Position numbers and translations under genes: made by a program
Part shown: one piece after another, positions 1,835-56,682 of the stretch
Position numbering within the stretch: position 1 is the stretch's first letter
How the letters are laid out: each line of letters opens with the position of its first letter
NCBI GenBank assembly: GCA_023954155.1
Contig: JAMLIO010000002.1
Coordinates: 130,221 to 194,220, forward strand
DNA length: 64,000 nucleotides
Source of the DNA: Pseudobdellovibrionaceae bacterium
GTDB taxonomy: Bacteria; Bdellovibrionota; Bdellovibrionia; Bdellovibrionales; UBA1609
Direction of reading: 5' to 3'
Notes under the pieces: generated by a model
Told to the model about the DNA's origin: nothing
What the model saw: the letters and a program-made list of their open reading frames with translations, nothing else
Databases searched by the model: none

Positions 1835-3307
1835 TTATTGTGCTCGACAGCTTTCCACACACTTTTCACCTGTGAGTGCCACTTTAAAAGTACTCATACA
1901 CTCAGAAGTCTTTTTGTGTCTGACGACTGACACCTCTGAGACATTAGGCTCAGAAATGCTTTTGAAGCGAGATTCACACAGAAACTTGGCATACTTTTCC
2001 ATTCCTGTTTTCATAGTGGGACTGGTGGGAAGGTAATAACTGGCTGTCATCATGTTTATCCCAATGGCATTATTTGTAGGACTGCTTTGAGCCAATTCAA
2101 AATCAAAATTGGCGGAAGTGATTTTGCTGCACTCACTTAAAGATTTGGCTTTGCGGATTCCTAGAGGGTCTTGCCCCGTTTTTGTAACTATAAAGATATG
2201 TCCTGAAGAGGCGACGACGTCACCGACAGCTAGATCTTCAGTTTTAGCTACAGCGATTTTTCTAAAGCAGGTTGTTCCACCACTACTAGGATTTTTAAAT
2301 CTTGCCGAATTGTAACTAAGAACATCACGGGCTTTAAGATTTACACTAGGGTTGAGTTTTAAGCCTGCTGTAGCTAGTGCTGTGAAAATAAATCCCGAAC
2401 AGTCAGTACCTAGAGCCGCAGATCCAGTCCCATGATTTTTAAAGAAGTTAAGTTCAGCATTGGCAGCCGCCGCCGAATAAGGTTTCCCGCCGTAATCATA
2501 AATCAGAGGGGAGTTGTAAGTAGAAAAGCAACTGGAGTCAGGTGTTCTTTGACTTAAATAGGGGTGAGTTCTTTGTACAGAGCTTAAACTAGAAATCACA
2601 CGCACATTTCCGCCCCCAGAAGAGTGGCGTCCTGTAACTTTGATTCCCTCTAAAGAGCTTTTTGAATTTTGAATTGTGGGTACATTTAAAGCCTCACAAT
2701 TTTGGTAAGCGGTGGCAAAGGTCTTATAGGTGCCAAAGATTTCTGGAGGATATTTATTTTGCAGTTGTTCAAATAAGGACCCTGCAATGGGCTCTTCGTC
2801 TGGTGTGCTGTCGTCTTGATCATTGGGAGTATCGTTACTGCAATTTTGTTGTAAGTTTTTTGATAACACTTGCAGTTCATTTAAGTGACTGCGAAAGGTG
2901 TCCTGAATGCTCTTTGTGGTTTTTGTCATTTGATCGCGAGTTTCAATGTGTGATAAAAGTTTTTTGATCTCTTCAATGTTTTCAGCGCCCAGTTTTTTTG
3001 GGAATTCAACAACAAGAGCTGTGTAAAACTCTTCAAATTTTACGATGATCTTTTGAATGTCTTCCTTGTGCTCTTCGTAGTTGTCTAGGGTGGTAAAGTC
3101 TTTTTGAAGTTGCTTCATCACCGCACTGACTTCGGGAAGCTTTTGATTTTCTTCTAAAGAGAGGTGAAGGATGTCAAACATCTGGGATTCAAACTGCTCA
3201 CAACTCATTTGGTTGGCTGCAATGCTGCTGAGTTGTTGAGTGTGCATGTCGTTCTGACAGGCTGCCAAAAAAAGTAAAAAAGTAGAATATCCGATGAGCT
3301 TTTTCAT
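1835..3307 (-). CDS. NlpC/P60-family cell-wall hydrolase lipoprotein
   Basis: Lipobox LFLAAC after the signal peptide. C-terminal domain has the NlpC/P60 catalytic Cys motif (GTDCSGFIF) and a downstream His (GDVVASSGHIFIV). Long helical N-terminal region of unknown function. Confidence 0.85.
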   Translation of the reverse strand: MKKLIGYSTFLLFLAACQNDMHTQQLSSIAANQMSCEQFESQMFDILHLSLEENQKLPEVSAVMKQLQKDFTTLDNYEEHKEDIQKIIVKFEEFYTALVVEFPKKLGAENIEEIKKLLSHIETRDQMTKTTKSIQDTFRSHLNELQVLSKNLQQNCSNDTPNDQDDSTPDEEPIAGSLFEQLQNKYPPEIFGTYKTFATAYQNCEALNVPTIQNSKSSLEGIKVTGRHSSGGGNVRVISSLSSVQRTHPYLSQRTPDSSCFSTYNSPLIYDYGGKPYSAAAANAELNFFKNHGTGSAALGTDCSGFIFTALATAGLKLNPSVNLKARDVLSYNSARFKNPSSGGTTCFRKIAVAKTEDLAVGDVVASSGHIFIVTKTGQDPLGIRKAKSLSECSKITSANFDFELAQSSPTNNAIGINMMTASYYLPTSPTMKTGMEKYAKFLCESRFKSISEPNVSEVSVVRHKKTSECMSTFKVALTGEKCVESCRAQ

Positions 3308-3557: not shown

Positions 3558-3693
3558 GGCGCGGGGTTGGCCGTTTGGTTTTATATGTTCGAAATGCGAG
3601 TTCGGCTTGGCGTAGTTTTGCGAACGCAAAGCTATGCCAAACGTTATGTCTGAGCATTTTGAACATATAAAACCAAACGGCCAACCCCGCGCC
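3558..3693 (+). repeat. long hairpin repeat element, copy A (conserved ~72-nt core inside a 33-bp perfect outer stem)
   Basis: 3558-3590 is the exact reverse complement of 3661-3693. The core 3589-3662 is near-identical to 56565-56639. Nested inner 15-bp stem 3607-3621 / 3626-3640 with a GAAC loop. Confidence 0.85.
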
Positions 3694-3857: not shown

Positions 3858-4670
3858 ATGCTTAAATCGATCAAATTTTATCTGAGCCTAGTGATGCTAC
3901 TAAGTGTGGCCTATGTCTCTGTAGGTTGCGGTGGCTTTTCAGCAAGCAATTCTGAGAGCCCACTGGGATCGTATTTACCAGGAGATCTTGATCTGCCACC
4001 TACAGGTGAAGACCCAGATGATATGGAGTATGAGGGTGATGGTGTATATCTGACCAACTTACACCCTGACATTTCAAGTTTATATGCCAAAGCCTACTTT
4101 CATGCTGACATTGGTGAACTTGCAGGAAGCCCTGGAACAAGTTCGGCTCGTCAAGGTGGAAGTGTGGTCTTAACTTTTGAAGACAGTTCTGGAAATACAT
4201 CCAAACGTTATTTTTCAACAGGTGGAAGCACGCTTTCAAGTATGGAAAAGAACTATTGGACTAAGAAGACTAACGGAGACGTCATGTGGAGAGGAATCTT
4301 CCAAGGTCAACGTGGTGCTTTTGTGGTGATCATTGATGGTGTATTTATGTATGGTGACGGAGCGGGACCTTTAGATACTATGTCGGGTTCGGTTTGGTTT
4401 AGACCATGGCAAGTTTTAGAAAATAGAGTTTTACCAACACATGAGTGTGTGCTCAATGCGTATGGTTTATGGGATTGTAAAAACCAAACAGCACCGATTC
4501 GTCAATGTTGGTACATCTCAAAAGGCCCTTATGATTGCCGCTTTAACATTTCTGGTGATGCTTCAACAGTCACTCGTGGGTCAGGTAATGAAAAGAACGA
4601 CACCAACTGGGTGAAGTTAGGTCGATTCTCAAACCTTAATAAATCCAAAGTCTTTCACGAGACCTACTAA
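3858..4670 (+). CDS. Cys-containing lipoprotein (unknown function)
   Basis: ATG with GGGGGAG SD. Signal peptide ending in lipobox SVGC. No recognisable catalytic motif. Confidence 0.75.
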   Translation: MLKSIKFYLSLVMLLSVAYVSVGCGGFSASNSESPLGSYLPGDLDLPPTGEDPDDMEYEGDGVYLTNLHPDISSLYAKAYFHADIGELAGSPGTSSARQGGSVVLTFEDSSGNTSKRYFSTGGSTLSSMEKNYWTKKTNGDVMWRGIFQGQRGAFVVIIDGVFMYGDGAGPLDTMSGSVWFRPWQVLENRVLPTHECVLNAYGLWDCKNQTAPIRQCWYISKGPYDCRFNISGDASTVTRGSGNEKNDTNWVKLGRFSNLNKSKVFHETY

Positions 4671-4797: not shown

Positions 4798-5688
4798 ATG
4801 TTACATAATATTTCTATGCTTGCATTTTGGTCTGAATTTTTTGAAGAGTTGGAGTTTGTAAGAGGGCGATCGAAAAATACGATTCAATCTTACCGTAGGG
4901 ATTTAGAACTTTACGAGTCTTTTTTAAAAAAGCATAAAGACATTCATTACTTTTATGCTTTTATGAAGGGTCAAGGCCTCAGTGATAGATCACAAGCTAG
5001 AGTGATCAGCAGTTTAAGAACCTATTTTAAGTTTTGTGAGTCTAAGGGTAAGGACTCCCCAGAACTTCGTTCCTTAAAGTTACCTAAAGTCAAAAAGACC
5101 ATACCCAAAACTATCACGCCAGCACAGTTTGAGATGCTCTTTCAAGCGGCTGCCGTCCCACAAGAGACACTTAAGACTGAACGTAATCAATTGGTCTTAC
5201 TTTTACTTTTTGGCCTAGGCTGTAGGGTGACAGAGTTAATTCAGATCGAACTTAATGATGTGGATTTACAAGAAGGTTATGTCAAAATTTTAGGTAAGGG
5301 AAATAAGGAGCGGCTTGTCCCTTTAACAGAGAGTTTACTTACCAAAGTGAAAGTCTATCTTGAGGAAGCAAGACCAAGTTTGGTTAAAAACAAAACCGTG
5401 AAGACTCTTTTGGTGAATGAAAGAGGGAAGGCCTTATCTCGCATAGACATTTGGAGATGGTTGGCGGCATGGTCTCAACGTGCAGGCTTTAAAGAAGTGA
5501 TACATCCCCATCAATTGCGCCATGCCTGTGCTACAACCCTGTTGGAGCAAGGAGCAGACCTTAGAAGTATTCAAATTTTGTTGGGACACACTTCTATCCA
5601 GACCACTCAAGTGTACACTCAGGTCACTACCAGGAAGCTAAATAAAGAAGTGGATGCTAAGCATCCACTTTCTCACTATAAAGACTAG
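4798..5688 (+). CDS. xerD: tyrosine site-specific recombinase, XerD/XerC family
   Basis: N-terminal SAM-like domain (RSKNTIQSYRRDLELY). C-terminal catalytic motifs (GCRVTEL, HQLRHACATTLLEQGADLRSIQILLGHTSIQTTQVYTQV). Alternative ATG at 4816. Confidence 0.88.
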   Translation: MLHNISMLAFWSEFFEELEFVRGRSKNTIQSYRRDLELYESFLKKHKDIHYFYAFMKGQGLSDRSQARVISSLRTYFKFCESKGKDSPELRSLKLPKVKKTIPKTITPAQFEMLFQAAAVPQETLKTERNQLVLLLLFGLGCRVTELIQIELNDVDLQEGYVKILGKGNKERLVPLTESLLTKVKVYLEEARPSLVKNKTVKTLLVNERGKALSRIDIWRWLAAWSQRAGFKEVIHPHQLRHACATTLLEQGADLRSIQILLGHTSIQTTQVYTQVTTRKLNKEVDAKHPLSHYKD

Positions 5689-5715: not shown

Positions 5716-5985
5716 CTATGCGCGAATAGATTTACGGATTTCTGCTTCTGATTGATCTAACAAAATAGTCAACAGCTTAGCTTTTGGAATCTTAGTAAGC
5801 TTAATGATTTTGCCTACATGATCCATTCTTGGGCTGCACAGACCGCGCTCCCAGTTGCTGATGAGTTGCTTGTTTACTCCAAGTGCATTCGCAAGTTCGC
5901 TTTGGCTTAAGCCTGCTTTGATGCGATGGTCTTGGAAGAAGCGTCCGATTTTTCTTGAGTATGGTAATGCTATTTTTGTTTTCAT
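5716..5985 (-). CDS. XRE-family helix-turn-helix transcriptional regulator
   Basis: HTH_XRE signature LSQSELANALGVNKQLISNWERG. Start taken at the internal ATG (MKTKIALPY); the ORF extends to 6021. Confidence 0.85.
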   Translation of the reverse strand: MKTKIALPYSRKIGRFFQDHRIKAGLSQSELANALGVNKQLISNWERGLCSPRMDHVGKIIKLTKIPKAKLLTILLDQSEAEIRKSIRA

Positions 5986-6203
5986 ACGTATCAAGGTAAC
6001 GTCGTAAAAAATAAATGTCACGTAAATTTGTATAAAAAATCTTACTTGAGAATGAAATCACAAAATATGAAGAAATTTAGATAAAATGTTGTCAAAGATA
6101 AAACAATTAGAGACGCGCTTTATTTACTGAGATCAAAAATCGGACCGTTCTCCGCGAGAGGATAGATTTACGATAACATAATAAGCATAAAGTTTGCTTT
6201 CCA

Positions 6204-7649
6204 GTGTTCATGAAAATTTTTGCGTTAAATACTTCTGCATACGGTGACTCTTGGGTCGAAATTGAAATCAATCTCATTCCTGGTCTTCCGCGTTTTTCCA
6301 TTATAGGACTGCCTGACACGGCTTTGAAGGAGGGTGTACTGCGAATCAAGTCGGCTCTTTTGGCGCATGGTTTTGAGTGGCCAAAAAATAAAGAAGTGAT
6401 CATCAATCTTAAACCTATCAATAGTAAAAAGTGGAATCAGAATATTGAACTCGCAATTTTAATTTGTTTTTTGCATGTGACACAGCAAATTAAACTCAAG
6501 TCCAGCTTTAATGATGATGATTCTCTATTAGTGTTGGGCGATCTGAATTTAATGGGACAAACCACTTTGTCTAAAGATATTTGTGCACGCACGTTCACAA
6601 ATTGGAAAGGTAAAATTCTAACTGGTTGCGTTCTGGAACCAGTGTTGTTCGATCACTATGTGATTGAACATATCGGGCAATTAAAAAATGCAGCTTTGTC
6701 TTTTCATAAAAAAGCATCCTTGCAAGAGATCATCAGACGCCCTCCATCCGATCGTTTTTTATGGACGCAAGAAGAAGCTAGGCTCATCAGTCTTTTGGCT
6801 TTGGGATCTTTTTCGGCTTTGCTTGCAGGAGTAAAAGGTGCTGGCAAAACAACTCTTGTTAAGGAAGTGTGGCGACTTTTACCTGCGCCGAACGAACATG
6901 AGTTTGAAGAGATCGGGATGCAGTCCAAGCAGTGCCCTGAGTGGCGCCCTTTGGTTTTTCCTCATCACACCATGCCTAGGGTGTCGTTGATTGGCGGAGG
7001 TGTTCCTCTCAAGATGGGTGAAGTGGGGCGCGCGCATGGGGGCATTATGGTGTTAGATGAATTTCTGGAGTTTAAAAAAGAAAGCATAGAGGTTTTACGT
7101 GAGGCCATGCAATCAGAAGAGGTGGAAGTTTCTAGGTTAGGGCAGACCCATAAATTTAAGACAAGGTTTCAAGCTTTGGCGACAACTAATCTTTGTCCTT
7201 GTGGGAAGTGGTCAGGACAAGAAGGGCATTTTGTAAATTGCTCTAGAAGCCTTATGACTTGTAAGTCCTATATCAATCGGATGATTGGCCCCGTGATGGA
7301 TCGGTTTCATATTTTATGGTTAAAGCCGTATCGGATTAAAGGAGATGCTCAAACAATATGCAGCGATGATATTTTAAGAGGGCTCGAAGAGGCTAGAGCG
7401 TGGAGGGCTAAGAGACCTTGGGGAGATCGGGCGTGCAATAAACTTTTGGTTTCTGAGGTTCAGGGTATGTTGACCAAAAGGTGGTTAAAAGACGTTTACG
7501 TTTTTGAGGGCCAATCGGAGCGACGCCAACAGGCGTTTTGGCAGGTGGCCAGAGCTTTAGCCGATTTGGATATGGTGGAGCGTATCGGGGAAAAGCACAT
7601 ACGTGAGGCTTACAAATGGACCTGTTTGGACTTTGGAACCTTGCTGTAA
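6204..7649 (+). CDS. comM: YifB/ComM-family Mg-chelatase-like AAA+ ATPase
   Basis: N-terminal Lon-like ChlI domain (IPGLPRFSIIGLPDTALKEGVLRIKSAL). Walker A GVKGAGKTT. Walker B GGIMVLDEFLEF. The ATG at 6210 is an equally good start. Confidence 0.85.
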   Translation: MFMKIFALNTSAYGDSWVEIEINLIPGLPRFSIIGLPDTALKEGVLRIKSALLAHGFEWPKNKEVIINLKPINSKKWNQNIELAILICFLHVTQQIKLKSSFNDDDSLLVLGDLNLMGQTTLSKDICARTFTNWKGKILTGCVLEPVLFDHYVIEHIGQLKNAALSFHKKASLQEIIRRPPSDRFLWTQEEARLISLLALGSFSALLAGVKGAGKTTLVKEVWRLLPAPNEHEFEEIGMQSKQCPEWRPLVFPHHTMPRVSLIGGGVPLKMGEVGRAHGGIMVLDEFLEFKKESIEVLREAMQSEEVEVSRLGQTHKFKTRFQALATTNLCPCGKWSGQEGHFVNCSRSLMTCKSYINRMIGPVMDRFHILWLKPYRIKGDAQTICSDDILRGLEEARAWRAKRPWGDRACNKLLVSEVQGMLTKRWLKDVYVFEGQSERRQQAFWQVARALADLDMVERIGEKHIREAYKWTCLDFGTLL

Positions 7650-7718: not shown

Positions 7719-7792
7719 GGTGGCGTAGCCAAGTGGTTAGGCAGCGGCCTGCAAAGCCGTCTACGCCGGTTCGAGTCCGGCCGCCACCTCCA
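7719..7792 (+). tRNA. tRNA-Cys (anticodon GCA), CCA encoded
   Basis: Acceptor stem GGTGGCG/CGCCACC. Anticodon stem-loop GCGGC-CTGCAAA-GCCGT. T-arm GCCGG-TTCGAGT-CCGGC. Discriminator T followed by CCA. 74 nt. Confidence 0.95.
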
Positions 7793-7943: not shown

Positions 7944-10900
7944 TCATACATTGATCTTCTTATCATTAGGCTGATACTTTAAGATCAGCCTTTCGAGCGT
8001 TAAATACAACGTAGGGAGAATCAGAAGTGTTAAAATCATCGAGGACAATATCCCTCCAATGATCACGGTGGCCAGTGGTTTTTGTACTTCAGCTCCCATT
8101 CCTGTGGCCAGCATCATGGGCAGAAACCCAAACACATCCACAAGAGAGGTCATCAGTACTGGTCTTAAACGAAGGCTTGCTCCAGTAAGGACTAACTGCT
8201 GACCTTTAATTCCTCGTGTTCTAAGTTCATTAAAATAATTTACAAGCACAACACCATTAAGGATAGCAATTCCTGACAGAGCCATAAAACCCACTCCTGC
8301 AGAAACGCTGAAGGGGATCCCTGCAATCATAAGGGCCAGCACTCCCCCTATTAAGGCAAAAGGAACGCATAAAAATATCAAAACAGTTTCAACGATATTT
8401 TTGAATGCCGCATACACCATAAGTAAAACTAAAAGCAGTGTAATGGGTCCTAGTATGGAAAGTCGAACTTTCGCTTCGGTTAAGTTTTTAAAGTTTCCGC
8501 CCCATTCCATGTAATAACCTGCTGGGAGTTCTAATTGAGTATGGATTTGATTTTTGGCATCAGCCACAAAAGATTCAGTGTCTCGTCCTCGTGGATTGAT
8601 CAGAACAGCTATGCGTCTTTTGGTTTGTTCACGGCTAAAGGAGCTATAGGTCTCTATAAACTCAATATGGGCAAGATCTTGTAGTGGGACGGTGGTAGCA
8701 CCTGCAATTCCAACGGGTAAATGTTTGATCTGTTCAATACTGTTTCTGACCTCATCAGAGGTTCTTATCACAATAGGGAATCTTCTAAGACCCTCATAAA
8801 AAGTTCCCACCTCTTGGCCACCAAGAGCAAAGTGAATGGTCTCTAAGACTTTTTGCGATGAGACACCCATAAGTTTTAATTTTTCTTGGTCGGGTTTTAT
8901 ATCTAAAATAGAAACCATACCTTTGGCTTCTAATTCCACATCACCTGCTCCAGGTACATCGTGAATGATGGACATGGCCTGTTCTGCAAGTTCGGTGATA
9001 GTAGCTTGATCTTCTCCAAAAATTTTAAGAGACACATCGGCGCGCGTTCCTTCCATCAGCTCATTAAATCGCAATTGAATAGGTTGACTGGCTAAAATGC
9101 GTTGCCCAGGTGTGGTCTCTTCAAGTCTTTGAATAATGGCGCTGACGAGTTCATCTTTAGTTCTTCGCTTGCCATTGATTTTTGGCCATTCTTTTCGAGG
9201 CTTAAGCATGAGAAACGTATCAGAAATATTGGGTCCCATGGGGTCGGTGGCTATCTCTGCCGAGCCTATACGTGAAAATACGTCTTTGATTTCTGTAAAC
9301 TCTGTGATGATGTTTTGCGAAACTTCTTCGAGAGACACAGAGTGTGAGAGTCCCACGCTTACGGGTCTTATAAATTGTAAAGCAATAGACCCTTCGTTAA
9401 GCTGAGGCAAAAATTCTCCACCTAAACGTGTAAATAAAATTCCTCCAATCAAAACAGCGCCGACTCCTAGAGACAATATAACTTTTCTGGTGTTTAATCC
9501 CCAGTGAAGTAGTGGGATATAAAGGCTGTGTAGTGTTCTCATGATCCATGGTTCTTGATCTTTTACATTTCCTTTTAAGATCAAGCTTGCCAACGCTGGT
9601 ACAAAAGTAAAAGACAGAATTAAAGCACCTAAGATTGCAAAGATAAATGTCGCGGCCATGGGAATAAACATTTTGCCCTCAATACCAACAAAAGCAAAAA
9701 CAGGAAGGAAGGCGACAATGACCACAAGCTCACCAAACCCCGCAGAGGTTCGGATTTCAACAGCAGCTTCATGAATGGTGCTTTGTAGTTCGGCATTAGT
9801 GAGTGTGCGTTTGAGCCTCTGTGTTTTGTCATGAACATGTCTGACACAGTTATCAAGCACAATAACAGCGCCATCTACAATGATGCCAAAATCTAAAGCA
9901 CCTAGGCTGACTAAATTTCCAGAAATATTAAACTTCCGCATAAGGATAAAAGTAATAAGCAAAGATATAGGTATAACTATAGCAGTGATCAGGGCGGCTC
10001 GTAGATTTCCAATCAACAAGAAGAGCACTAAGATCACTAGAATGGCTCCATAAAGTAAATTGTGTTCTACAGTACTTAGAGTAGCATTTACCAGTTCAGA
10101 TCTATCATAAACAGTTTTAATAATATAATCTTTGGGAAGCGAAGAGCGAATCTCTTCTATGGCTGCATCAATCTTTAAAGATACGGCCCTTGAGTTTTCA
10201 CCTAAGAGCATAAGCACGGTACCCAGAACCACCTCTTCGCCGTTATGGAGTGCTGCGCCTAATCTCAGTTCATGTCCCATTTCCACTGTGGCGATATCTG
10301 CAATAGTGATGGGCTTTGCATTTTCGAGCATCTTAATAGGAACGTTTCTTATGTCTTCCAAGTTTTGAAATAATCCAGAGCCTTGCACCAAGAACTGATC
10401 GGCAGTCTGTTCGACATATCCGCCACCTGCATTTTTATTCACTGAACGAATGGCTTGATCAATATCGCTAAAATGAATTCCGAAGTCCGCCATTTTGCTG
10501 GGATGGGGTTGAATCAAATACTGTCTTTCGTGCCCGCCAATAGTGTTGACTTCGGCTACTCCTTGGACAGCTAAAAGTCTTGGTTTGATATACCAATCTT
10601 GTAAAGTGCGAATTTCAGAAAGTTGTTTCTGTCGACCTTCTCCCGTAATGGGTTCTTTGGCTTCAATGACGTAGTGATAGACTTCTCCAAGACCAGAGGT
10701 GACAGGTCCAAGTTGAGGTGTCACTCCTTCAGGGAGATCTTTGGTTACACCCTGTAGCCGTTCTGTGACTAGCTGCCGAGCATGGTAGATGTCCGTGTTA
10801 TCCTCAAAAGAAACAGTGACCTGAGACACCCCGAAACGTGTGATAGATCTGATTTGGTCAACACCTGGGATTCCATTTAAAACAAGCTCAATCGGTATGG

Positions 10901-11096
10901 TTACCGCCCTTTCTATCTCTTCAGGGCTGAGAGCTTGTACTGGAGTGTTGATTTGGACTTGTACATTTGTAATATCAGGAACTGCATCAATGGGTAGATT
11001 TAAAAAAGCCATCCCACCTGCTATGGAAATAAGAGTTGTGGCTAAGATCACCAGCCATCTGTAGTGAATAGAATATTTTATTAAATTTGAGATCAT
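7944..11096 (-). CDS. czcA: CzcA-type heavy-metal efflux RND transporter
   Basis: 1050 aa. The N-terminus RWLVILATTL...LPIDAVPDITNVQVQINT matches the HME-RND signature. 12-TM RND architecture. Confidence 0.95.
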   Translation of the reverse strand: MISNLIKYSIHYRWLVILATTLISIAGGMAFLNLPIDAVPDITNVQVQINTPVQALSPEEIERAVTIPIELVLNGIPGVDQIRSITRFGVSQVTVSFEDNTDIYHARQLVTERLQGVTKDLPEGVTPQLGPVTSGLGEVYHYVIEAKEPITGEGRQKQLSEIRTLQDWYIKPRLLAVQGVAEVNTIGGHERQYLIQPHPSKMADFGIHFSDIDQAIRSVNKNAGGGYVEQTADQFLVQGSGLFQNLEDIRNVPIKMLENAKPITIADIATVEMGHELRLGAALHNGEEVVLGTVLMLLGENSRAVSLKIDAAIEEIRSSLPKDYIIKTVYDRSELVNATLSTVEHNLLYGAILVILVLFLLIGNLRAALITAIVIPISLLITFILMRKFNISGNLVSLGALDFGIIVDGAVIVLDNCVRHVHDKTQRLKRTLTNAELQSTIHEAAVEIRTSAGFGELVVIVAFLPVFAFVGIEGKMFIPMAATFIFAILGALILSFTFVPALASLILKGNVKDQEPWIMRTLHSLYIPLLHWGLNTRKVILSLGVGAVLIGGILFTRLGGEFLPQLNEGSIALQFIRPVSVGLSHSVSLEEVSQNIITEFTEIKDVFSRIGSAEIATDPMGPNISDTFLMLKPRKEWPKINGKRRTKDELVSAIIQRLEETTPGQRILASQPIQLRFNELMEGTRADVSLKIFGEDQATITELAEQAMSIIHDVPGAGDVELEAKGMVSILDIKPDQEKLKLMGVSSQKVLETIHFALGGQEVGTFYEGLRRFPIVIRTSDEVRNSIEQIKHLPVGIAGATTVPLQDLAHIEFIETYSSFSREQTKRRIAVLINPRGRDTESFVADAKNQIHTQLELPAGYYMEWGGNFKNLTEAKVRLSILGPITLLLVLLMVYAAFKNIVETVLIFLCVPFALIGGVLALMIAGIPFSVSAGVGFMALSGIAILNGVVLVNYFNELRTRGIKGQQLVLTGASLRLRPVLMTSLVDVFGFLPMMLATGMGAEVQKPLATVIIGGILSSMILTLLILPTLYLTLERLILKYQPNDKKINV

Positions 11097-14560: not shown

Positions 14561-14613
14561 ATAGCAACATCTGGTTTAAGTTTTAAAAAACTTAAAAATA
14601 TAAAATTTAAAGA

Positions 14614-14643
14614 GCCTGATCGAAAGCGGTCGGGCTTTTTTTA
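14614..14643 (+). terminator. Rho-independent terminator of the RRM protein gene
   Basis: 9-bp stem (14614-14622 / 14627-14635, two G-U pairs), tetraloop AAAG, T-tract 14636-14642. Confidence 0.75.
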
Positions 14644-14679
14644 TTTTGATTTGAGTCTGAATTTGACACGTTCATTGAG

Positions 14680-14895
14680 ATGATGTGCTTTGTTGCGGGA
14701 GGTGATGGGCCAAGACCATGTGGAGAAGTGTATTGCGGCTCAAGGTGTGAGATGGCGATCTGTGATGAACTTTGTTGCGGCTCAAGATGTGAGACTGCTG
14801 CAATATGTGATGAGTTTTGTTGCGGGTGCTGATGATGAGACAGAGTTTTGTGGTGAACTTTGTTGCAGTCGATGAGAGTGAGATGGTGACTTTTT
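14680..14895 (+). repeat. degenerate tandem repeat array, about 5 x 40-45 nt
   Basis: The TTGCGG/TTGCAG anchor recurs at 14693, 14733, 14775, 14820 and 14863. Unit consensus is roughly tGTGaTGAacTTTGTTGCGGctcaaGATGtGAGA. Confidence 0.7.
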
Positions 14896-18840: not shown

Positions 18841-20013
18841 ATGAGAACTCTTTTCATTTCCGCTCTTCTTTTAGTTTGTCACATATCCTACGCATACGAA
18901 TTTACAGTGAATCCGATGGCTCGCGTAAGGTATGAGTCTTTTAATAGCTATGATTTAGAAGGTGCGCATCGTGCCTTCATCGGTTCAAGGTTTTGGTTGC
19001 TGGGAACGGTCAAGCATGAAGGATATGCTTTTGTATTTCAACCACAGTTTGCAAGAACATGGGGACAAGAGGTTGATGGTCTGACCGCAAGCGGTGGGGT
19101 TGTCGACCCCGAAGCGCATGTCCACCAAGCATATATGCTAGCTCCTCTGTACTCTCATTTTAATATTAAACTTGGGCGCCAAGAGTTGGCCTATGGGGAT
19201 GAACTGATTTTAGGAGCCGTAGGGTGGAGCAATATTGGTCGAAGTTTTGATGCCTTAAAAGTGGAGTTTGAAATTTCAAACCTTCAGTTAGATATGTTTG
19301 TCAGTAAACTTGTAGATCGAAATGCAGTGGGCCCTTCTGTGGGTGATACGGATCTTTATGGTATGTATTTTAAAATGCAAAACCCATTCGAGATTTTAAA
19401 AGAGACCGACCTCTATGTTTTTGGTTTGAATGATAAGAGCCTTTCGCCAAGACAAGATATTTTAACTGCTGGTGCGCGATTTACAGGAAAGCTGCACAGC
19501 TTTGATCACCGCTTGGAAACCATATACCAAAAGATCGCTAGCTCCAATGAAGGACAAGTTGATGCTGAGGTGGGCTTTACCCATGAGCTTTTGGGCCGCC
19601 TAGCTTTGAATTACTTTATGGCCACAGAACACTACAACCAGATGTTTCCTACGGCCCACAAATGGCTAGGGATCGGAGACATGGTAGCTAGAAGAAATAT
19701 CCAAGGGTATCAAGTTAAATTTCAAAAAAATTGGAATGCAAAATTTAAAACTGAACTGACTTACCACAATATGTTTCGATACTCTACTTCAGAGACGGCC
19801 TATCGTATGAATGGAACCACTGCTTTAGGAGACACAGGTTTATCTAGCAAAAATATTGCACAAGAGTATGATCTGATCTTTAATTATGTCTACGATAAAA
19901 ATCTAAGTTACCAGATTGGTGGAGCTGTGTTCGTACCAGAAAACTATTTAAAAGAAAGCGGAAAGGACAAAACCTACACCTTTGGTTATCTACAAGTGAT
20001 GCTCAAGCTTTAG
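18841..20013 (+). CDS. outer-membrane beta-barrel protein (alginate-export/porin-like)
   Basis: Signal peptide (LLVCHISYA). Alternating beta-strand pattern throughout. Family assignment is by overall resemblance only. Confidence 0.72.
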   Translation: MRTLFISALLLVCHISYAYEFTVNPMARVRYESFNSYDLEGAHRAFIGSRFWLLGTVKHEGYAFVFQPQFARTWGQEVDGLTASGGVVDPEAHVHQAYMLAPLYSHFNIKLGRQELAYGDELILGAVGWSNIGRSFDALKVEFEISNLQLDMFVSKLVDRNAVGPSVGDTDLYGMYFKMQNPFEILKETDLYVFGLNDKSLSPRQDILTAGARFTGKLHSFDHRLETIYQKIASSNEGQVDAEVGFTHELLGRLALNYFMATEHYNQMFPTAHKWLGIGDMVARRNIQGYQVKFQKNWNAKFKTELTYHNMFRYSTSETAYRMNGTTALGDTGLSSKNIAQEYDLIFNYVYDKNLSYQIGGAVFVPENYLKESGKDKTYTFGYLQVMLKL

Positions 20014-20145: not shown

Positions 20146-21243
20146 TTACTTGGTGAATTTTTTAAGCTCTTTGATTCGTGCTCTTTCAAATTCAGGAACG
20201 TGCATCCCTGAGCTTCCAGAATAACCTAAGATGATCTTGTCTTCATACTTTTTAAAGCATTCACTGGCCAACTCTGTTTTAGGATGCGTTCTTACACATA
20301 AAGCATAATAATTCTCTGGAACCATAAAGATAGAGATTTCAGGGAAGTGGGCATAAATGTCGCCAAGAGCGGCATAGGCTGAGGCTCTTTCTTCATTGGT
20401 TTTTAAATCCTTTAATTTTTCGTGAAGAAGATTTTTAATTTTTAAAGAGGTGTAGAGTGATTTTTCAAAAGTCATAAAGTCGCTTTGATAAGACTGTAGC
20501 TCTGTCAAAGCCTCTTGAACACTTTTGATCTCTTGGGGCTTACTGACGTTGGATCTTAGATTTTTAAGATCATTTAACGTGCCCTTATTGGTGGCTTTAT
20601 CTTGGATATTTTTTAAATCCACCAAAATTTTATCTTTGTCGTAATCCGCAAGCAGCGCAGAGTTGATGTAGTGGACTAAGGCGCGGTGGGTCTGAAAGTA
20701 ATCGCTGGGAGTAGCAGATGTAAGTAAAATCGTCTTAAAGATTTCAGCAGAGGCTTGATAGTCTCGCATAGCTAGTGCTAAGTGCCCTTTTTCTGTTTCT
20801 GGAATTTTATTGTCTTTAAAAAGATCAAAAAGATGGGTGGACTTGCCTCCTTTAGAATGGCAAGCAGCACACTGACCAATAGCGTGTCGAGTATAAAAGA
20901 CACTCTGTTTGGGATCAAGGGGCATCAACTTTTCTGCCATATCCAGACTGTGTTTAAACTGATCGTATTCAGCTTTAATGGCAGGGTCTTTTTTAGAGAA
21001 AAAATTGATCACAGAAAACTTTAAACCATGAGAGACATTATTAAGATCTTGGATCGCAGAACTTAAAGTGGCACGCTCCTGTTCTGTGAACGTACTTTTA
21101 TTCAAATCTACAGAGTAAATTTTAGCAACAGGCCCAACGAACCCCAGCATCTTTCGTGTCCATTCTTCAGACTGGGCTAGTGCAGTCAGGGTGATCAAAA
21201 GGGCAGGTAAAACATAAATCAAGGAACGTAAAAGTGCTTTCAT
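20146..21243 (-). CDS. secreted c-type cytochrome domain protein
   Basis: Start at the internal ATG (MKALLRSLIYVLPALL, signal peptide) with AAGGAG SD. Single haem-binding motif CAACH. The rest is helical and uncharacterised. Confidence 0.7.
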   Translation of the reverse strand: MKALLRSLIYVLPALLITLTALAQSEEWTRKMLGFVGPVAKIYSVDLNKSTFTEQERATLSSAIQDLNNVSHGLKFSVINFFSKKDPAIKAEYDQFKHSLDMAEKLMPLDPKQSVFYTRHAIGQCAACHSKGGKSTHLFDLFKDNKIPETEKGHLALAMRDYQASAEIFKTILLTSATPSDYFQTHRALVHYINSALLADYDKDKILVDLKNIQDKATNKGTLNDLKNLRSNVSKPQEIKSVQEALTELQSYQSDFMTFEKSLYTSLKIKNLLHEKLKDLKTNEERASAYAALGDIYAHFPEISIFMVPENYYALCVRTHPKTELASECFKKYEDKIILGYSGSSGMHVPEFERARIKELKKFTK

Positions 21244-42212: not shown

Positions 42213-42257
42213 TAGTATAAGAGTGTACCTTTAAGGTCTTTTGGTAAAGACCTCGAC

Positions 42258-43595
42258 CTAAGAAATATACGAAAGGCCAAAAGTGGCGATGGTCAAAAAG
42301 ATCAAATAGCCGCCGATATCTGTACCCATCGTGACAAGCACACCGCTTCCCACCGCAGGGTCTTTACCCAAAGACTTAAGGATAATAGGAACCAAAGAGC
42401 CCATAGTGGCTGCAATGATGGAGTTGAGAAACATGGAGAGCCACAGTATGAGTCCAATAGTAAGGTCTTGCTTCCATCCATAAACCACTAAACAGGCTAC
42501 GGCTCCTGTACAAAAGCCCAGTGTGACACCCACGGTGATCTCTTTGATCAGAGCCTTTTTATAGGTTGTAAAATGAAACTCTCCGATGGCTAATCCTCGA
42601 GTGACCACGGTTAAAGTTTGTATGGCCGTATTGCCCCCTGTAGCTGCGCAGATGTTCATCAGACTGGCAAGGATTAACACTTCTGAGATGGTGCTTTCAA
42701 ATTGATGGATCACTAAACTGGCAAACCAAGCTAAAAACATATTTAAGACAAGCCAAGGGATACGATTTAAAAAAGAGAGATACGCCTTCATGGTCACAGA
42801 GTCCATCTGTTGCAGACCTGCTTGAGCGTAGATGTCGGCTGTGGCCTGCTCTTGGATTTCGTCTACCACATCATCAATAGTGATAAGGCCCACCATGCGG
42901 TGGTTTTCATTGAGCACGGGAATGGCCACTAGGTCATGCTGCTGAACCATATTGATCGCCACTTCGATGTCATCATGGGTACGACACGCAATCACATCGC
43001 GATTGATGATGTCATCTAAAGCCGATTGAGGTTCTGCCATGGCCAATTGCCTTAACGACGCCACACCAATGAGTTTGAGAGTGCTAGTGACACAATAGAT
43101 GTAATAAATGTAGTCGGTATTTTTGGCATGTTTGCGGATATAATCCAAACTTTCTTCGGCCGTAAGTTCTATGGGAATAGAAAAAAAATCCGTCTGCATC
43201 TGTCGACCGCAAGAATCCCTAGGGTATTCTAAATAACGTCGTAATTTTTGATGTTGAGGAAGCTGAGGTAAAAGCTCTTCGAGGCGGTCTTCTGTCAAAT
43301 AGCCTAAGAAAAATACCGAGTCATCAATGTCCGCCTTGCCAATCAGCTTTGTCCAGTCGGTGACTTCCAGAAGATCAATGATCTCAACAAGACGGGCTTC
43401 AGGAAGCTCCAGAAAGGCATCGACAATCTGCGTTAATTCCATGATCTCGTCTTTACGATTGAGGAAGTCGGCTTTGCTTAAGTTATTGATCCATCTGGAT
43501 AAATCCATATGCCTAAGAGCTGAGAGCTGTTTGCTGCTGATCAGACTTGGGTTTTTATTCAGCTGGGTTTGACCTTTTTTCCAGAAAGCAAACAT
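42258..43595 (-). CDS. mgtE: magnesium transporter MgtE
   Basis: MgtE N-domain, tandem CBS pair and C-terminal 5-TM domain (GNTAIQTLTVVTRGLA, DPAVGSGVLVTMGTDIGGY). Confidence 0.93.
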   Translation of the reverse strand: MFAFWKKGQTQLNKNPSLISSKQLSALRHMDLSRWINNLSKADFLNRKDEIMELTQIVDAFLELPEARLVEIIDLLEVTDWTKLIGKADIDDSVFFLGYLTEDRLEELLPQLPQHQKLRRYLEYPRDSCGRQMQTDFFSIPIELTAEESLDYIRKHAKNTDYIYYIYCVTSTLKLIGVASLRQLAMAEPQSALDDIINRDVIACRTHDDIEVAINMVQQHDLVAIPVLNENHRMVGLITIDDVVDEIQEQATADIYAQAGLQQMDSVTMKAYLSFLNRIPWLVLNMFLAWFASLVIHQFESTISEVLILASLMNICAATGGNTAIQTLTVVTRGLAIGEFHFTTYKKALIKEITVGVTLGFCTGAVACLVVYGWKQDLTIGLILWLSMFLNSIIAATMGSLVPIILKSLGKDPAVGSGVLVTMGTDIGGYLIFLTIATFGLSYIS

Positions 43596-53564: not shown

Positions 53565-53631
53565 GTTGTTCTCCATAATGTGATTTTACACATTATGGAG
53601 AAGATTCAAAACGCTTATCAAGGGAACAGGT

Positions 53632-55528: not shown

Positions 55529-55606
55529 ACTTTGTTGCCATCCTGCACTAATATAAGGATTTGAGGATGATGCGTATTACAAAAACGCATAATGGAGGCT
55601 AAAATC

Positions 55607-56509
55607 ATGAATATTCAGCAATTAGCAACGTTTTGTACGGTCGTCAGCGAAGGAAGTATGACTGCTGCGGCTGAAAAACTGTTTTTGACTCAGCCCGCAG
55701 TGAGCCAACAGATCCGAAACTTAGAGGATGAAGTCAATTGTGAGCTTTTGGTTAGGGGTGTGCGTAGCGTTAAACCGACCCTGCAAGGGCAGCTTTTATA
55801 TGATTACGCTAAGCGCATTTTGCATCTGACAGAGCAAGCCGAAGTGGCTTTGCAGGCCATGTCCAACGAACTTTCAGGTGAAATCCGCATTGGGACCTTA
55901 AACTCTTTGGGACTTTACCTTATCAGCCCTGTCATTGGTCTGTTTATGAAGCACAATACAAAACTTAAGATCAAATTGATTTATGGCTCGATCCATAACC
56001 TAGTGAAAGACTTAGATGAGGATCAGTTAGATGTTCTTATTTTGCCAGAGCCTACTTTTGAAGTTTCAGATAAATTTAAAAGCTTAGGTAAAAAGTTTTT
56101 AATGACAGATGAAATGTGGCTGGTAGGTTCAGGTCGTGACTCGTCTTTACCACAAAGAGTGGCTTTAAAAGATTACGTTGCCAATCAAGTGATCTATTTC
56201 ACCGACAAGTACGTCGGATTCCAAGCCCAACTTGATGAACATCTCAAAGCTCAAGGTTTAAAATTAAACCCCATTTTTGAATCCGATAACGTAGGTACAT
56301 TAAAACGAGTGATCGAAACTGGCCTAGGCTGGGGCTTCTTACCCGCTCACAGCATTAAAAAACAAGTACGCACAGGCCGCCTAAGTAAAATCATGGTGGA
56401 AGACGTCCGCTTTAGCACATCTGTAAACATGTATTATAAAAACACAAAAGAAGTGAACGATATTGTTGAGGTGCTTTTCCGCGCCGTCCGCCAACAAGCC
56501 CTAAACTAA
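55607..56509 (+). CDS. LysR-family transcriptional regulator
   Basis: ATG at 55607 with GGAGG SD. HTH MTAAAEKLFLTQPAVSQQIRNLE. LysR substrate-binding domain. Confidence 0.9.
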   Translation: MNIQQLATFCTVVSEGSMTAAAEKLFLTQPAVSQQIRNLEDEVNCELLVRGVRSVKPTLQGQLLYDYAKRILHLTEQAEVALQAMSNELSGEIRIGTLNSLGLYLISPVIGLFMKHNTKLKIKLIYGSIHNLVKDLDEDQLDVLILPEPTFEVSDKFKSLGKKFLMTDEMWLVGSGRDSSLPQRVALKDYVANQVIYFTDKYVGFQAQLDEHLKAQGLKLNPIFESDNVGTLKRVIETGLGWGFLPAHSIKKQVRTGRLSKIMVEDVRFSTSVNMYYKNTKEVNDIVEVLFRAVRQQALN

Positions 56510-56521
56510 AACACCAACTGA

Positions 56522-56682
56522 GCCTCTTGCGCTTGGTCTTTGGGTTGTATTTTTTTATATATGGTCGAAATGCGAGTTCGGCTTGGCGTGCTTTTGCGAA
56601 CGCAAAGGCATGCCAAACGTCACTGTCTGAGCATTTTGAGTATATATAAAAAAATACAACCCAAAGACCAAGCGCAAGAGGC
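56522..56682 (+). repeat. long hairpin repeat element, copy B (same core, 41-bp perfect outer stem)
   Basis: 56522-56562 is the exact reverse complement of 56642-56682. The core 56565-56639 matches 3589-3662. Fills the gap between the convergent LysR and ppsR stop codons. Confidence 0.85.

Follow-up and report, generated by a model that had tools for sequence, protein, structure and literature searches.

A dispersed hairpin repeat of Bdellovibrio-like bacteria with a constant centre and copy-specific, complementary arms

How can a DNA hairpin keep its centre nearly constant from locus to locus, let its ends change from copy to copy, and still have those ends pair with each other? The question is raised by a stretch of 64,000 nucleotides from a Pseudobdellovibrionaceae bacterium (assembly GCA_023954155.1, contig JAMLIO010000002.1, positions 130,221 to 194,220; hereafter the window), which carries two long hairpins in the same orientation: copy A (3558–3693, + strand, 136 nt) and copy B (56522–56682, + strand, 161 nt). 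We find that both belong to a dispersed DNA repeat of predatory Bdellovibrio-like bacteria that was previously undescribed, and that the family keeps a lopsided core between copy-specific, near-perfect inverted arms.

Copy A was delimited by an inverted-repeat scan (repeat I2), by folding and by a covariance model, copy B by the scan (repeat I1) and the model. The scan assigns arms of 40 nt to copy A (3558–3597/3654–3693, 98% complementary, 56 nt apart) and of 52 nt to copy B (56522–56573/56631–56682, 94% complementary, 57 nt apart), which makes them by far the longest close-range hairpins of the window. The 5′ outer arm of copy A (3558–3597, + strand) is copy-specific, G/T-rich and terminates in the A-tract GAAAT. 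It is followed by the invariant 5′ core block CGAGTTCGGCTTGGC (3597–3611), an inner stem-loop of 15 bp with a GAAC loop (3607–3640; the base TTGGC/GCCAA is conserved and the remainder covaries), the invariant 3′ core block GCCAAACGTTATGTCTGAGC (3636–3655) and the 3′ outer arm (3654–3693), which starts with the T-tract ATTTTG. Copy B has the same 5′ block CGAGTTCGGCTTGGC at 56573–56587, the inner stem-loop with its GAAC loop at 56583–56616 and the 3′ block GCCAAACGTCACTGTCTGAGC at 56612–56632, all on the + strand. The shared core (3574–3644 versus 56550–56620) is 89% identical in the same orientation; the copies differ by AG..CT to GC..GC in the inner stem, a compensatory swap of two pairs, and by TAT to CACT. 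A 17-nt inverted repeat at 42236–42375 looks arm-like, but lies inside coding sequence without a core and was rejected.

The initial annotation, made from the sequence letters, had described two long hairpins with a common core and three short differences, and the repeat scan and the fold confirm this. The minimum free energy fold of copy A also reproduces the architecture proposed for it, with a 40-bp outer stem, an internal loop of 9 nt versus 13 nt and a 15-bp inner stem with a GAAC cap. Copy A folds at −99.6 kcal/mol (z = −15.1) and a 145-nt version of copy B at −90.9 kcal/mol (z = −15.5); 0 of 200 shuffles were equally stable in either case. The arms of copy A form 37 Watson–Crick pairs and one G·T. 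Aligned with each other, the A and B arms give 33 matches, two mismatches and 22 gap columns, and the differences are mirrored in the partner arm, as had been noted, except at one G·T in copy A and, in copy B, at two G·T and one G·G, none of them more than 10 bp from the core.

The family was found by relaxing the search. An exact 20-mer, ATGCGAGTTCGGCTTGGCGT, gave zero matches in genome, metagenome and viral collections; it is too strict, as the bases before CGAG vary. A pattern built from the unpaired blocks, GAGTTCGGC-N-AAACGT-N-GTCTGAGC, matched three metagenome-assembled genomes in GTDB (uncultured Pseudobdellovibrionaceae CAYMBJ01 and CAYMKD01, and Bdellovibrionota H41-bin001_1, JBBTCO01), and a version with wider gaps additionally matched the Hainich H41 groundwater metagenome (the H41-bin001_1 genome) and contig Ga0075163. 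A covariance model trained on 14 copies recovered all of these on a single strand at 83–131 bits (copy A 96.5, copy B 82.8) and added two new copies adjoining known ones. The family thus comprises 16 distinct copies at non-homologous loci in five genomes or assemblies, at least 11 of them in the H41 genome. The 14 copies beyond the window bear out the prediction, implicit in the idea of a repeat family, that more would exist. The same hairpin sequences recur in independent assemblies (ENA, NCBI, Logan, JGI, GTDB), and they lie inside long contigs, bordered on either side by unique sequence and genuine genes. One pattern match, L022, was a chance hit with no hairpin and was discarded.

Other searches define where the family does not occur. 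No copies are present in the relatives L003, L005, L009 and L026–L030, and plasmid and phage collections and a viral pattern scan gave no match to the element. The joined six-frame translations of both window copies, used as a pseudo-protein, matched nothing among 5.8 billion proteins, and a literature search with core 14-mers was likewise negative. At the gathering threshold Rfam 15 reports only tRNA in the whole window; permissive scans of copy A and one H41 pair give only generic long-hairpin (plant miRNA precursor) matches far below threshold, and the TwoAYGGAY model reaches 38.9 bits (threshold 43) on the opposite strand, without the AYGGAY motif. Comparison by eye with 6S RNA, SRP, k-turn/box C/D, hammerhead and T-loop structures led us to reject each of them, either because the motifs are absent or because the family is multi-copy and dispensable. 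Isolated core halves, which would mark a longer autonomous element, were absent from ∼ 300 kb of loci; wherever the 3′ core block was found it lies inside a family member.

Family units are ∼ 105–250 nt long (130–206 nt for most copies) and read, from 5′ to 3′, an A-rich run of 4–6 nt, CGAGTTCGGCTTGGC, the inner stem-loop, GCCAAACGT(0–2 nt)ATGTCTGAGC and a T-rich run. The CGAGTTCGGCTTGGC block is invariant in a 14-sequence alignment and nearly so in all 16 copies, and the inner stem-loop varies except for its fixed base TTGGC/GCCAA. All sequence outside the A/T runs, the two core blocks and the inner-stem base is copy-specific. The result is a lopsided centre of ∼ 60 bases that is common to genomes of differing G+C content. 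The ∼ 72-nt conserved core of the initial annotation holds between copies A and B; across the family it contracts to the 15-nt and ∼ 20-nt blocks plus the A/T tracts. Similarly, the outer stem does continue into the core in the copy A fold, but the relevant G-C pair is found in only 4 of the 16 members. RNAalifold predicts that the two blocks are joined by a helix, P2, in which GUUCGGC pairs with G(U)CUGAGC (two G·U pairs included), leaving an 8-nt bulge on the 3′ side; since P2 is invariant, it lies outside the reach of a covariation test. In the '+' form P2 is followed after 0–1 nt by a run of 4–6 U, and in the '−' form 9 nt lie between stem and U-tract. The core in '+' orientation therefore looks like an intrinsic terminator as judged from its sequence, although a consensus terminator scanner did not flag the elements.

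The outer arms are 22–68 bp long, with mismatch-free runs of 67, 59, 52, 51, 50, 49, 47 and 45 bp. Over all copies they contain 778 Watson–Crick pairs, 13 G·T, 5 A·C and 6 others, so that the additional copies, like the two in the window, have complementary arms (778 Watson–Crick against 24 non-Watson–Crick pairs). We also observed that 14 of 16 copies have T-rich or G/T-rich 5′ arms (26–57% T) and correspondingly A-rich 3′ arms (e.g. 3558–3590 and 56522–56565). Because the arms are palindromic, the T-rich bias exists on both strands, and each flanking gene is then followed by a U-rich stretch.

The complementarity is maintained through extensive change. Standard pairs occupy 97.7% of the cells of the 16-copy alignment, and 31 of 47 pairs (193 cells) have changed on both sides, a level reached by 0 of 500 shuffles; control structures slid along the alignment pair in 31–51% of cells. 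In the inner-stem helix (helix 3) both sides have changed in 8 of 14 pairs. Several paralogues at different loci have homologous arms (A/B, L018a/c, L018b/d, L014a/b and L025/L016m). Their core and inner region is 77–99% identical and their arms 41–76%, the arm differences being mostly indels, including one of ∼ 19 nt (L018d versus L018b). Each arm difference, multi-nucleotide indels included, appears in both arms of the copy concerned. Independent compensatory mutation cannot yield mirrored multi-nucleotide indels; one arm must therefore be copied from the other.

The exceptions to pairing are also structured. Cleanly defined arms contain ∼ 6 G·T and one A·C in ∼ 600 pairs (∼ 1% G·T), and what non-Watson–Crick pairs there are concentrate at arm positions 6, 9 and 10, no more than 10 bp from the core; position 6 is G·T in four copies from three genomes. 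Similarity between copies falls outward from the core. L016m and L014b have a perfect proximal stem and a distal inverted repeat that has decayed to ∼ 90% identity with G·T and A·C mismatches, which implies that correction is either centred on the core or takes place only when a copy is made. The mirrored indels, the scarcity of G·U and the decaying distal arms lead us to prefer templating at the DNA level to selection on an RNA helix. The initial annotation had left the choice between selection on pairing and a mechanism that templates one arm from its partner; the second has the better support. Template switching within quasi-palindromes is an established process that homogenizes and expands the arms of inverted repeats and can invert the spacer (PMC7202029, PMC8604942, PMC13100816).

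Copy A lies between two divergent genes without Pfam matches, one encoding 490 aa (1835–3307, − strand), whose start faces the element, and one encoding a lipoprotein-like protein of 270 aa (3858–4670, + strand), which was used as the query for empty sites. Copy B fills the 176-nt gap between the convergent stop codons of a LysR-family regulator (55592–56509, + strand), which stops 12 nt before it, and a phosphoenolpyruvate (PEP)-synthase regulatory kinase/phosphorylase (PPPase, PF03618; 56686–57528, − strand), which stops 3 nt after it and to which the element is antisense. A comparison of orthologous intergenic regions, as the initial annotation had suggested, found both sites unoccupied in close relatives. 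At site B the LysR and kinase stop codons overlap by 4 nt in L003/L004 (98% kinase identity), are separated by 41 unrelated nt in L005/L006 (96%) and by 9 nt in L031 (76%). Copy B is present in the same-strain contig L001, and its insertion has left the C-termini of both proteins unaltered. At site A the intergenic region is 160–200 nt shorter in relatives whose neighbouring proteins are 85% and 78% identical, and copy A is lacking from the orthologous region of L026–L028. L026 reads TTTTGAGAC-ATAAAAGCG-CTGTTGG where the window has TTTTGGAGAC-(hairpin)-TGTTGG, so that the conserved flanks TTTTGAGAC and CTGTTGG are only 9 nt apart. No arm sequence is found at the unoccupied sites A and B of relatives. 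Relative to close relatives, both window copies are whole-hairpin insertions, arms included.

The arms thus do not derive from the DNA beside them. The reading frames of two unrelated genes extend into the homologous arms of L018b and L018d, from which we conclude that the arms arrive with the element. Growth of the palindrome in place from flanking DNA is excluded for copies A and B by the empty sites without arm sequence, and for L018b and L018d by the combination of unrelated genes and homologous arms. No target-site duplication was seen: there are no direct repeats in the listed flanks of 13 copies or in the comparison of empty and filled site A, and at site B a repeat-like TTYTAR sequence is confounded by the duplicated stop codons.

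The genes beside the copies are ordinary housekeeping genes (MFS transporter, TrmO, YbeY, PanD, peptidases), and the hairpins start between 24 nt inside and 57 nt past the nearest stop codon (≤ 12 nt for most copies). The divergent promoter region described for copy A is therefore correct as a location but an exception within a family that is normally found at gene 3′ ends. Four convergent intergenic regions of the H41 genome each contain two head-to-head elements in the order −,+. Their spacers go down to 24 nt and are not conserved, and we rejected the idea that a pair is one composite element. The element is antisense to the nearest gene in all 11 copies with an unambiguous nearest gene end (seven pair members plus L014a, L025, L020 and L013), with a two-sided chance of ∼ 5 × 10−4, or ∼ 4 × 10−3 if each pair is counted once. 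Copy B obeys the rule if its nearest stop codon is taken as the reference; copy A, which lies in a promoter region, does not. In the antisense orientation the terminator-like form faces the 3′ end of the adjacent gene and is avoided in the sense direction between tandem genes. Either selection or insertion specificity may have produced the bias.

We propose, with a probability of roughly 0.55, that the family is a mobile, non-autonomous foldback repeat with a terminator-like core whose arms are kept complementary by templating at the DNA level. Copying of one arm from the other would maintain the pairing. The most economical route would be replication template switching inside the quasi-palindrome; alternatively, snap-back synthesis could regenerate one arm at each move. 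The core may persist because it is needed for propagation, because it acts as a terminator or insulator, or for both reasons. The initial annotation had spoken against a mobile repeat, but the element behaves as an insertion, found in some relatives and missing from others, and a mobile repeat is compatible with this.

Several observations weigh against this proposal. We found neither a transposase nor a terminal inverted-repeat motif nor a target-site duplication, and the case for mobility accordingly comes from presence/absence and dispersal. Some paralogue pairs have inner regions that are 97–99% identical and arms that are just 41–59% identical, which needs either faster turnover of the arms or gene conversion of the core. 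The 11 of 11 orientation bias is without explanation for a mobile repeat. The two strands are also asymmetric, which would not be expected of a purely double-stranded DNA palindrome: read in '+' orientation, the variable helices contain ∼ 16 G·U and 3 A·C, each of the three one-sided changes in P2 leads to G·U, and the core of the '+' strand is more stable than that of the '−' strand in 15 of 16 copies. The asymmetry suggests that the '+' strand folds alone, as RNA or as single-stranded DNA; the G·U/A·C statistic is soft, because several of the G·U pairs are common by descent. Alignment position 45–82 is G·U in five copies from four genomes. Finally, the search that yielded 14 of the 16 copies demanded an exact core, so its 'invariance' is partly an effect of ascertainment, and the two copies found by the model alone have 1–2 core substitutions each.

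The strand asymmetry is the main evidence for a structured RNA, either a cis-acting 3′-untranslated region or terminator element or a small RNA, whose conserved internal loop or P2 would bind a conserved factor, whose stems selection would keep paired and whose dispersal would be secondary. The very strong covariation, a core conserved across genomes of different G+C content, the preference for G·U (including the one-sided P2 changes), the better folding of the '+' strand, the non-random gene orientation and the '+' hairpin followed by a U-tract all agree with it. We nevertheless consider it unlikely. Mirrored indels of up to ∼ 19 nt are beyond independent compensatory mutation, and mismatch-free duplexes of 45–67 bp with ∼ 1% G·U are unlike selected RNA helices; perfect RNA duplexes of that length are RNase III substrates. 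Wherever the case is clear, the better-folding strand runs antisense to its neighbouring gene; the spacers of the pairs shrink to 24 nt, no promoter-like (sigma-70-like) sites were found in a promoter scan beside either window copy, close relatives manage without both window copies and Rfam offers only generic long-hairpin matches. A role at the RNA level and mobility could go together. A further conceivable reading is a transposon that moves as a folded single strand and whose ends are set by structure, lying wherever self-pairing stops. Its targets might be exposed single-stranded loops or hairpins at gene ends, as the nested hairpin of L031 described below would illustrate, and it might rebuild its second arm by snap-back synthesis primed from the T-tract after the terminator-like core. 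This scheme would account at once for arms that are perfect but copy-specific, for the absence of end motifs and target-site duplications, for the conserved A/T tracts and for the concentration of non-Watson–Crick pairs in the 10 bp nearest the core; we regard this more specific scheme as quite doubtful.

Perfect inverted repeats around a core that is terminator-like in one orientation only also bring to mind an invertible switch, in which the asymmetric core would flip between the arms at gene ends by template switching or through a recombinase. Template switching between arms is reported to invert spacers (PMC8604942). Same-strain contigs from independent assemblies break within cores, L010 and L011 at the same base, and copy A has a XerC/D-type recombinase gene 1.1 kb away. 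Yet no flipped core was seen at the same site (L001, L010 and L011 all have the window orientation), the recombinase has the look of a housekeeping Xer enzyme and accompanies no other copy, and 2–3× coverage would also explain the breaks. A spacer of 56–70 bp is moreover very short for recombinase-mediated inversion, and we think a switch of this type improbable. Still less probable are ordinary bidirectional terminators that have grown in place by template switching, are immobile, and owe their common core to convergence or local duplication. It is true that most copies sit between convergent stop codons with A/T tracts beside the core, that a core-less 63-bp hairpin occupies the same PPPase site in L034, and that template switching can expand inverted repeats (PMC13100816). 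However, convergence cannot produce an asymmetric core with ∼ 35 identical nucleotides at 16 non-homologous loci in five genomes, the unoccupied sites lack arm sequence, arms are homologous across loci and copy A is not at a gene end. That the family reflects chance similarity or an assembly artefact such as fold-back chimeras is scarcely credible: short-read contigs do break within elements, but the same sequences recur in independent assemblies and on long contigs with unique flanks and genes, the folding z-scores are near −15, and the isolated 3′ core block is never seen outside the elements.

Long hairpins of other kinds occur in related genomes. L031 has one at 20330–20571 with 81-bp arms and an 80-nt core that is unrelated to the family core, and another at 14650–14814 with 57-bp arms and a different core. 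A second copy of its core, in inverted orientation, surrounds the latter, which is inserted exactly into the apical loop (region 14600–14865); joining and reverse-complementing the flanks of the inserted element restores 43 of 47 core bases, and the outer copy has arms of its own of ∼ 18 bp. Hairpin loops can thus be insertion targets. In L034 the hairpin at the copy B site (10861–10997; 63-bp arms, 11-nt loop) directly follows the PPPase stop codon, and further inverted-repeat elements lie at 2575–2908, 6230–6358 and 18846–18947; two L034 elements have another repeat in common (GGAGGCGTACTTTTTT...GCAACGAAGCCTAT). Long perfect hairpins at gene ends are a trait of the lineage. A strain from assembly ERZ27276804 (L002, 1370–1518, orthologous to the window downstream of ∼ 56686) encodes an identical PPPase protein with synonymous differences and has wholly different downstream DNA, which marks the 3′ flank of this gene as a hot spot of variation; the L002 contig terminates in the hairpin-like sequence GCGTTTTGCCCGAAGGGCAAATGC.

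The hairpins coincide with contig ends. The same-strain short-read contigs L001, L010, L011 and L012, from three metagenomes, all end within hairpins, and L010 and L011, which come from separate assemblies, begin at the identical base (window 3634). Coverage is only 2–3×, but the breaks could also have a systematic origin, for instance sequencing drop-out at the hairpin or heterogeneity of orientation. L001 and L010 (sample ERZ4567617) represent the window strain at low coverage in human-gut assemblies of a Hadza/Nepal study. The ERZ4567617 contig name includes a MoBio kit, and other family members come from groundwater, which raises the question of an environmental or reagent origin of the gut reads.

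Downstream of the 270-aa gene next to copy A follow the XerC/D-type tyrosine recombinase (4798–5688) and an HTH_3 protein (5716–6021, − strand), then a ComM/Mg-chelatase-like ATPase (6204–7649) and tRNA-Cys (7719–7792). The relatives L026 and L027 instead have a very large open reading frame there (> 2300 aa in L026, at least 910 aa to the contig end in L027), and the break in synteny 1.1 kb from copy A is possibly the edge of an integrated element. Homologues of the PEP-synthase regulatory kinase next to copy B carry the names Bdellovibrio, Pseudobdellovibrionaceae or Bdellovibrionales, and a protein identical to a neighbour is known from an NCBI metagenome-assembled genome with the label Bdellovibrionaceae bacterium; the exact sequence of the window LysR protein was not on record in a protein look-up. 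Elsewhere in the window, a perfect 14-bp hairpin with a 6-nt loop (53569–53602, TTCTCCATAATGTG/CACATTATGGAGAA) lies just 3′ of a subtilase stop codon, is identical in the relative L003 (13744–13777) and is probably a terminator or operator. An 86-nt repeat with a spacing of 141 nt (662–888, within a Pro/Ser-rich reading frame at 191–1099) and a cluster of ∼ 27–34-nt repeats (TGATG..TTGTTGCGG) around 14.7 kb (14681–14866) are internal coding repeats unrelated to the hairpins.

REP, REPIN, ERIC and Correia repeats shape transcription termination, mRNA stability and genome plasticity, and to our knowledge all described families of small palindromic repeats have constant ends and a drifting middle. 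The present family does the reverse, and its mirrored arm changes would provide a natural read-out of intramolecular templating in wild bacteria. If its ends are truly defined by structure, it would point to a new way of moving DNA by a mechanism undescribed in bacteria. In practical terms, the hairpins break short-read assemblies of Bdellovibrionota and occupy the stop codons of housekeeping genes, where their strict orientation suggests that they influence read-through between convergent genes. For annotation of the family, the covariance model can be used directly.

Among known systems, the REP/REPIN elements mobilized by RAYT (TnpA-REP) are similar in being abundant, short, extragenic, non-coding palindromes that are often found at gene 3′ ends and in inverted doublets, are predicted to fold into hairpins as single-stranded DNA or RNA, and are present in one relative and absent from another. 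REPs show compensatory changes, and a REPIN has a conserved REP at both ends and a variable spacer in the middle (PMC3116915). Construction is opposite: REPINs combine invariant 16-mer ends with a variable centre, whereas our family combines an invariant asymmetric centre with variable ends, and its near-perfect arms of 22–68 bp are unlike those of REPINs. There is no REP-type GTAG/CGTC tag at the feet of the hairpins; CGTC is confined to the bulge on the 3′ side of the core, the wrong side for a REP tag, and roughly half of the copies have it (CGTT in the others). REPs are flanking a single-copy RAYT gene (a Y1 HUH transposase) in their genomes; no RAYT gene has been linked to the present family in the ∼ 10–20 kb read around each hit.

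Hairpin-forming miniature inverted-repeat transposable elements (MITEs) include Correia/CREE of Neisseria, ERIC/IRU of enterobacteria, RUP and Nezha, some with terminator or promoter activity. They too are non-autonomous intergenic repeats of 100–200 nt that form long hairpins if transcribed and are polymorphic for insertion. MITEs have family-wide conserved terminal inverted repeats and target-site duplications. The present family differs in that the outermost arms of its 16 copies have no common motif; like MITEs it is present or absent between relatives, but it lacks their target-site duplication. Quasi-palindrome template switching, as formulated in the Ripley model and in Lovett's assays, perfects arms, mirrors multi-nucleotide changes in one event, expands arms and can invert spacers. 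Its presumed action matches the arm pattern seen here; as a mutational process it accounts neither for the conservation of the core nor for its dispersal.

Bidirectional terminators are likewise hairpins flanked by A- and T-tracts between convergent genes. Their stems are typically 5–15 bp and site-specific, whereas the present hairpins run on for 22–68 bp past the A/T tracts and repeat a ∼ 35-nt identical core at many loci. IS1397 and ISKpn1 insert into REP loops, and class C group II introns insert after terminators; these elements are protein-coding or ribozyme-based, whereas the present family has no known coding partner. The related hairpin of L031 is similarly inserted in an apical loop, and the family gathers where terminator hairpins are expected. 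The foldback (FB) elements of eukaryotes, with kilobase-long arms made of tandem subrepeats, also place long variable inverted arms around a middle segment, in another kingdom and with no relationship implied. Integron attC sites combine conserved R″/L″ and L′/R′ boxes at the hairpin base with a variable centre, next to a cassette array with an integrase; in this family the base varies and the centre is conserved, and the elements lie between housekeeping genes. Covarying pairs, as expected of structured non-coding RNAs, are present here and would be present in a DNA palindrome equally. The family falls outside the definitions of MITEs, REP/REPINs, attC sites and every Rfam family, with which its likeness is one of life-style and not of construction.

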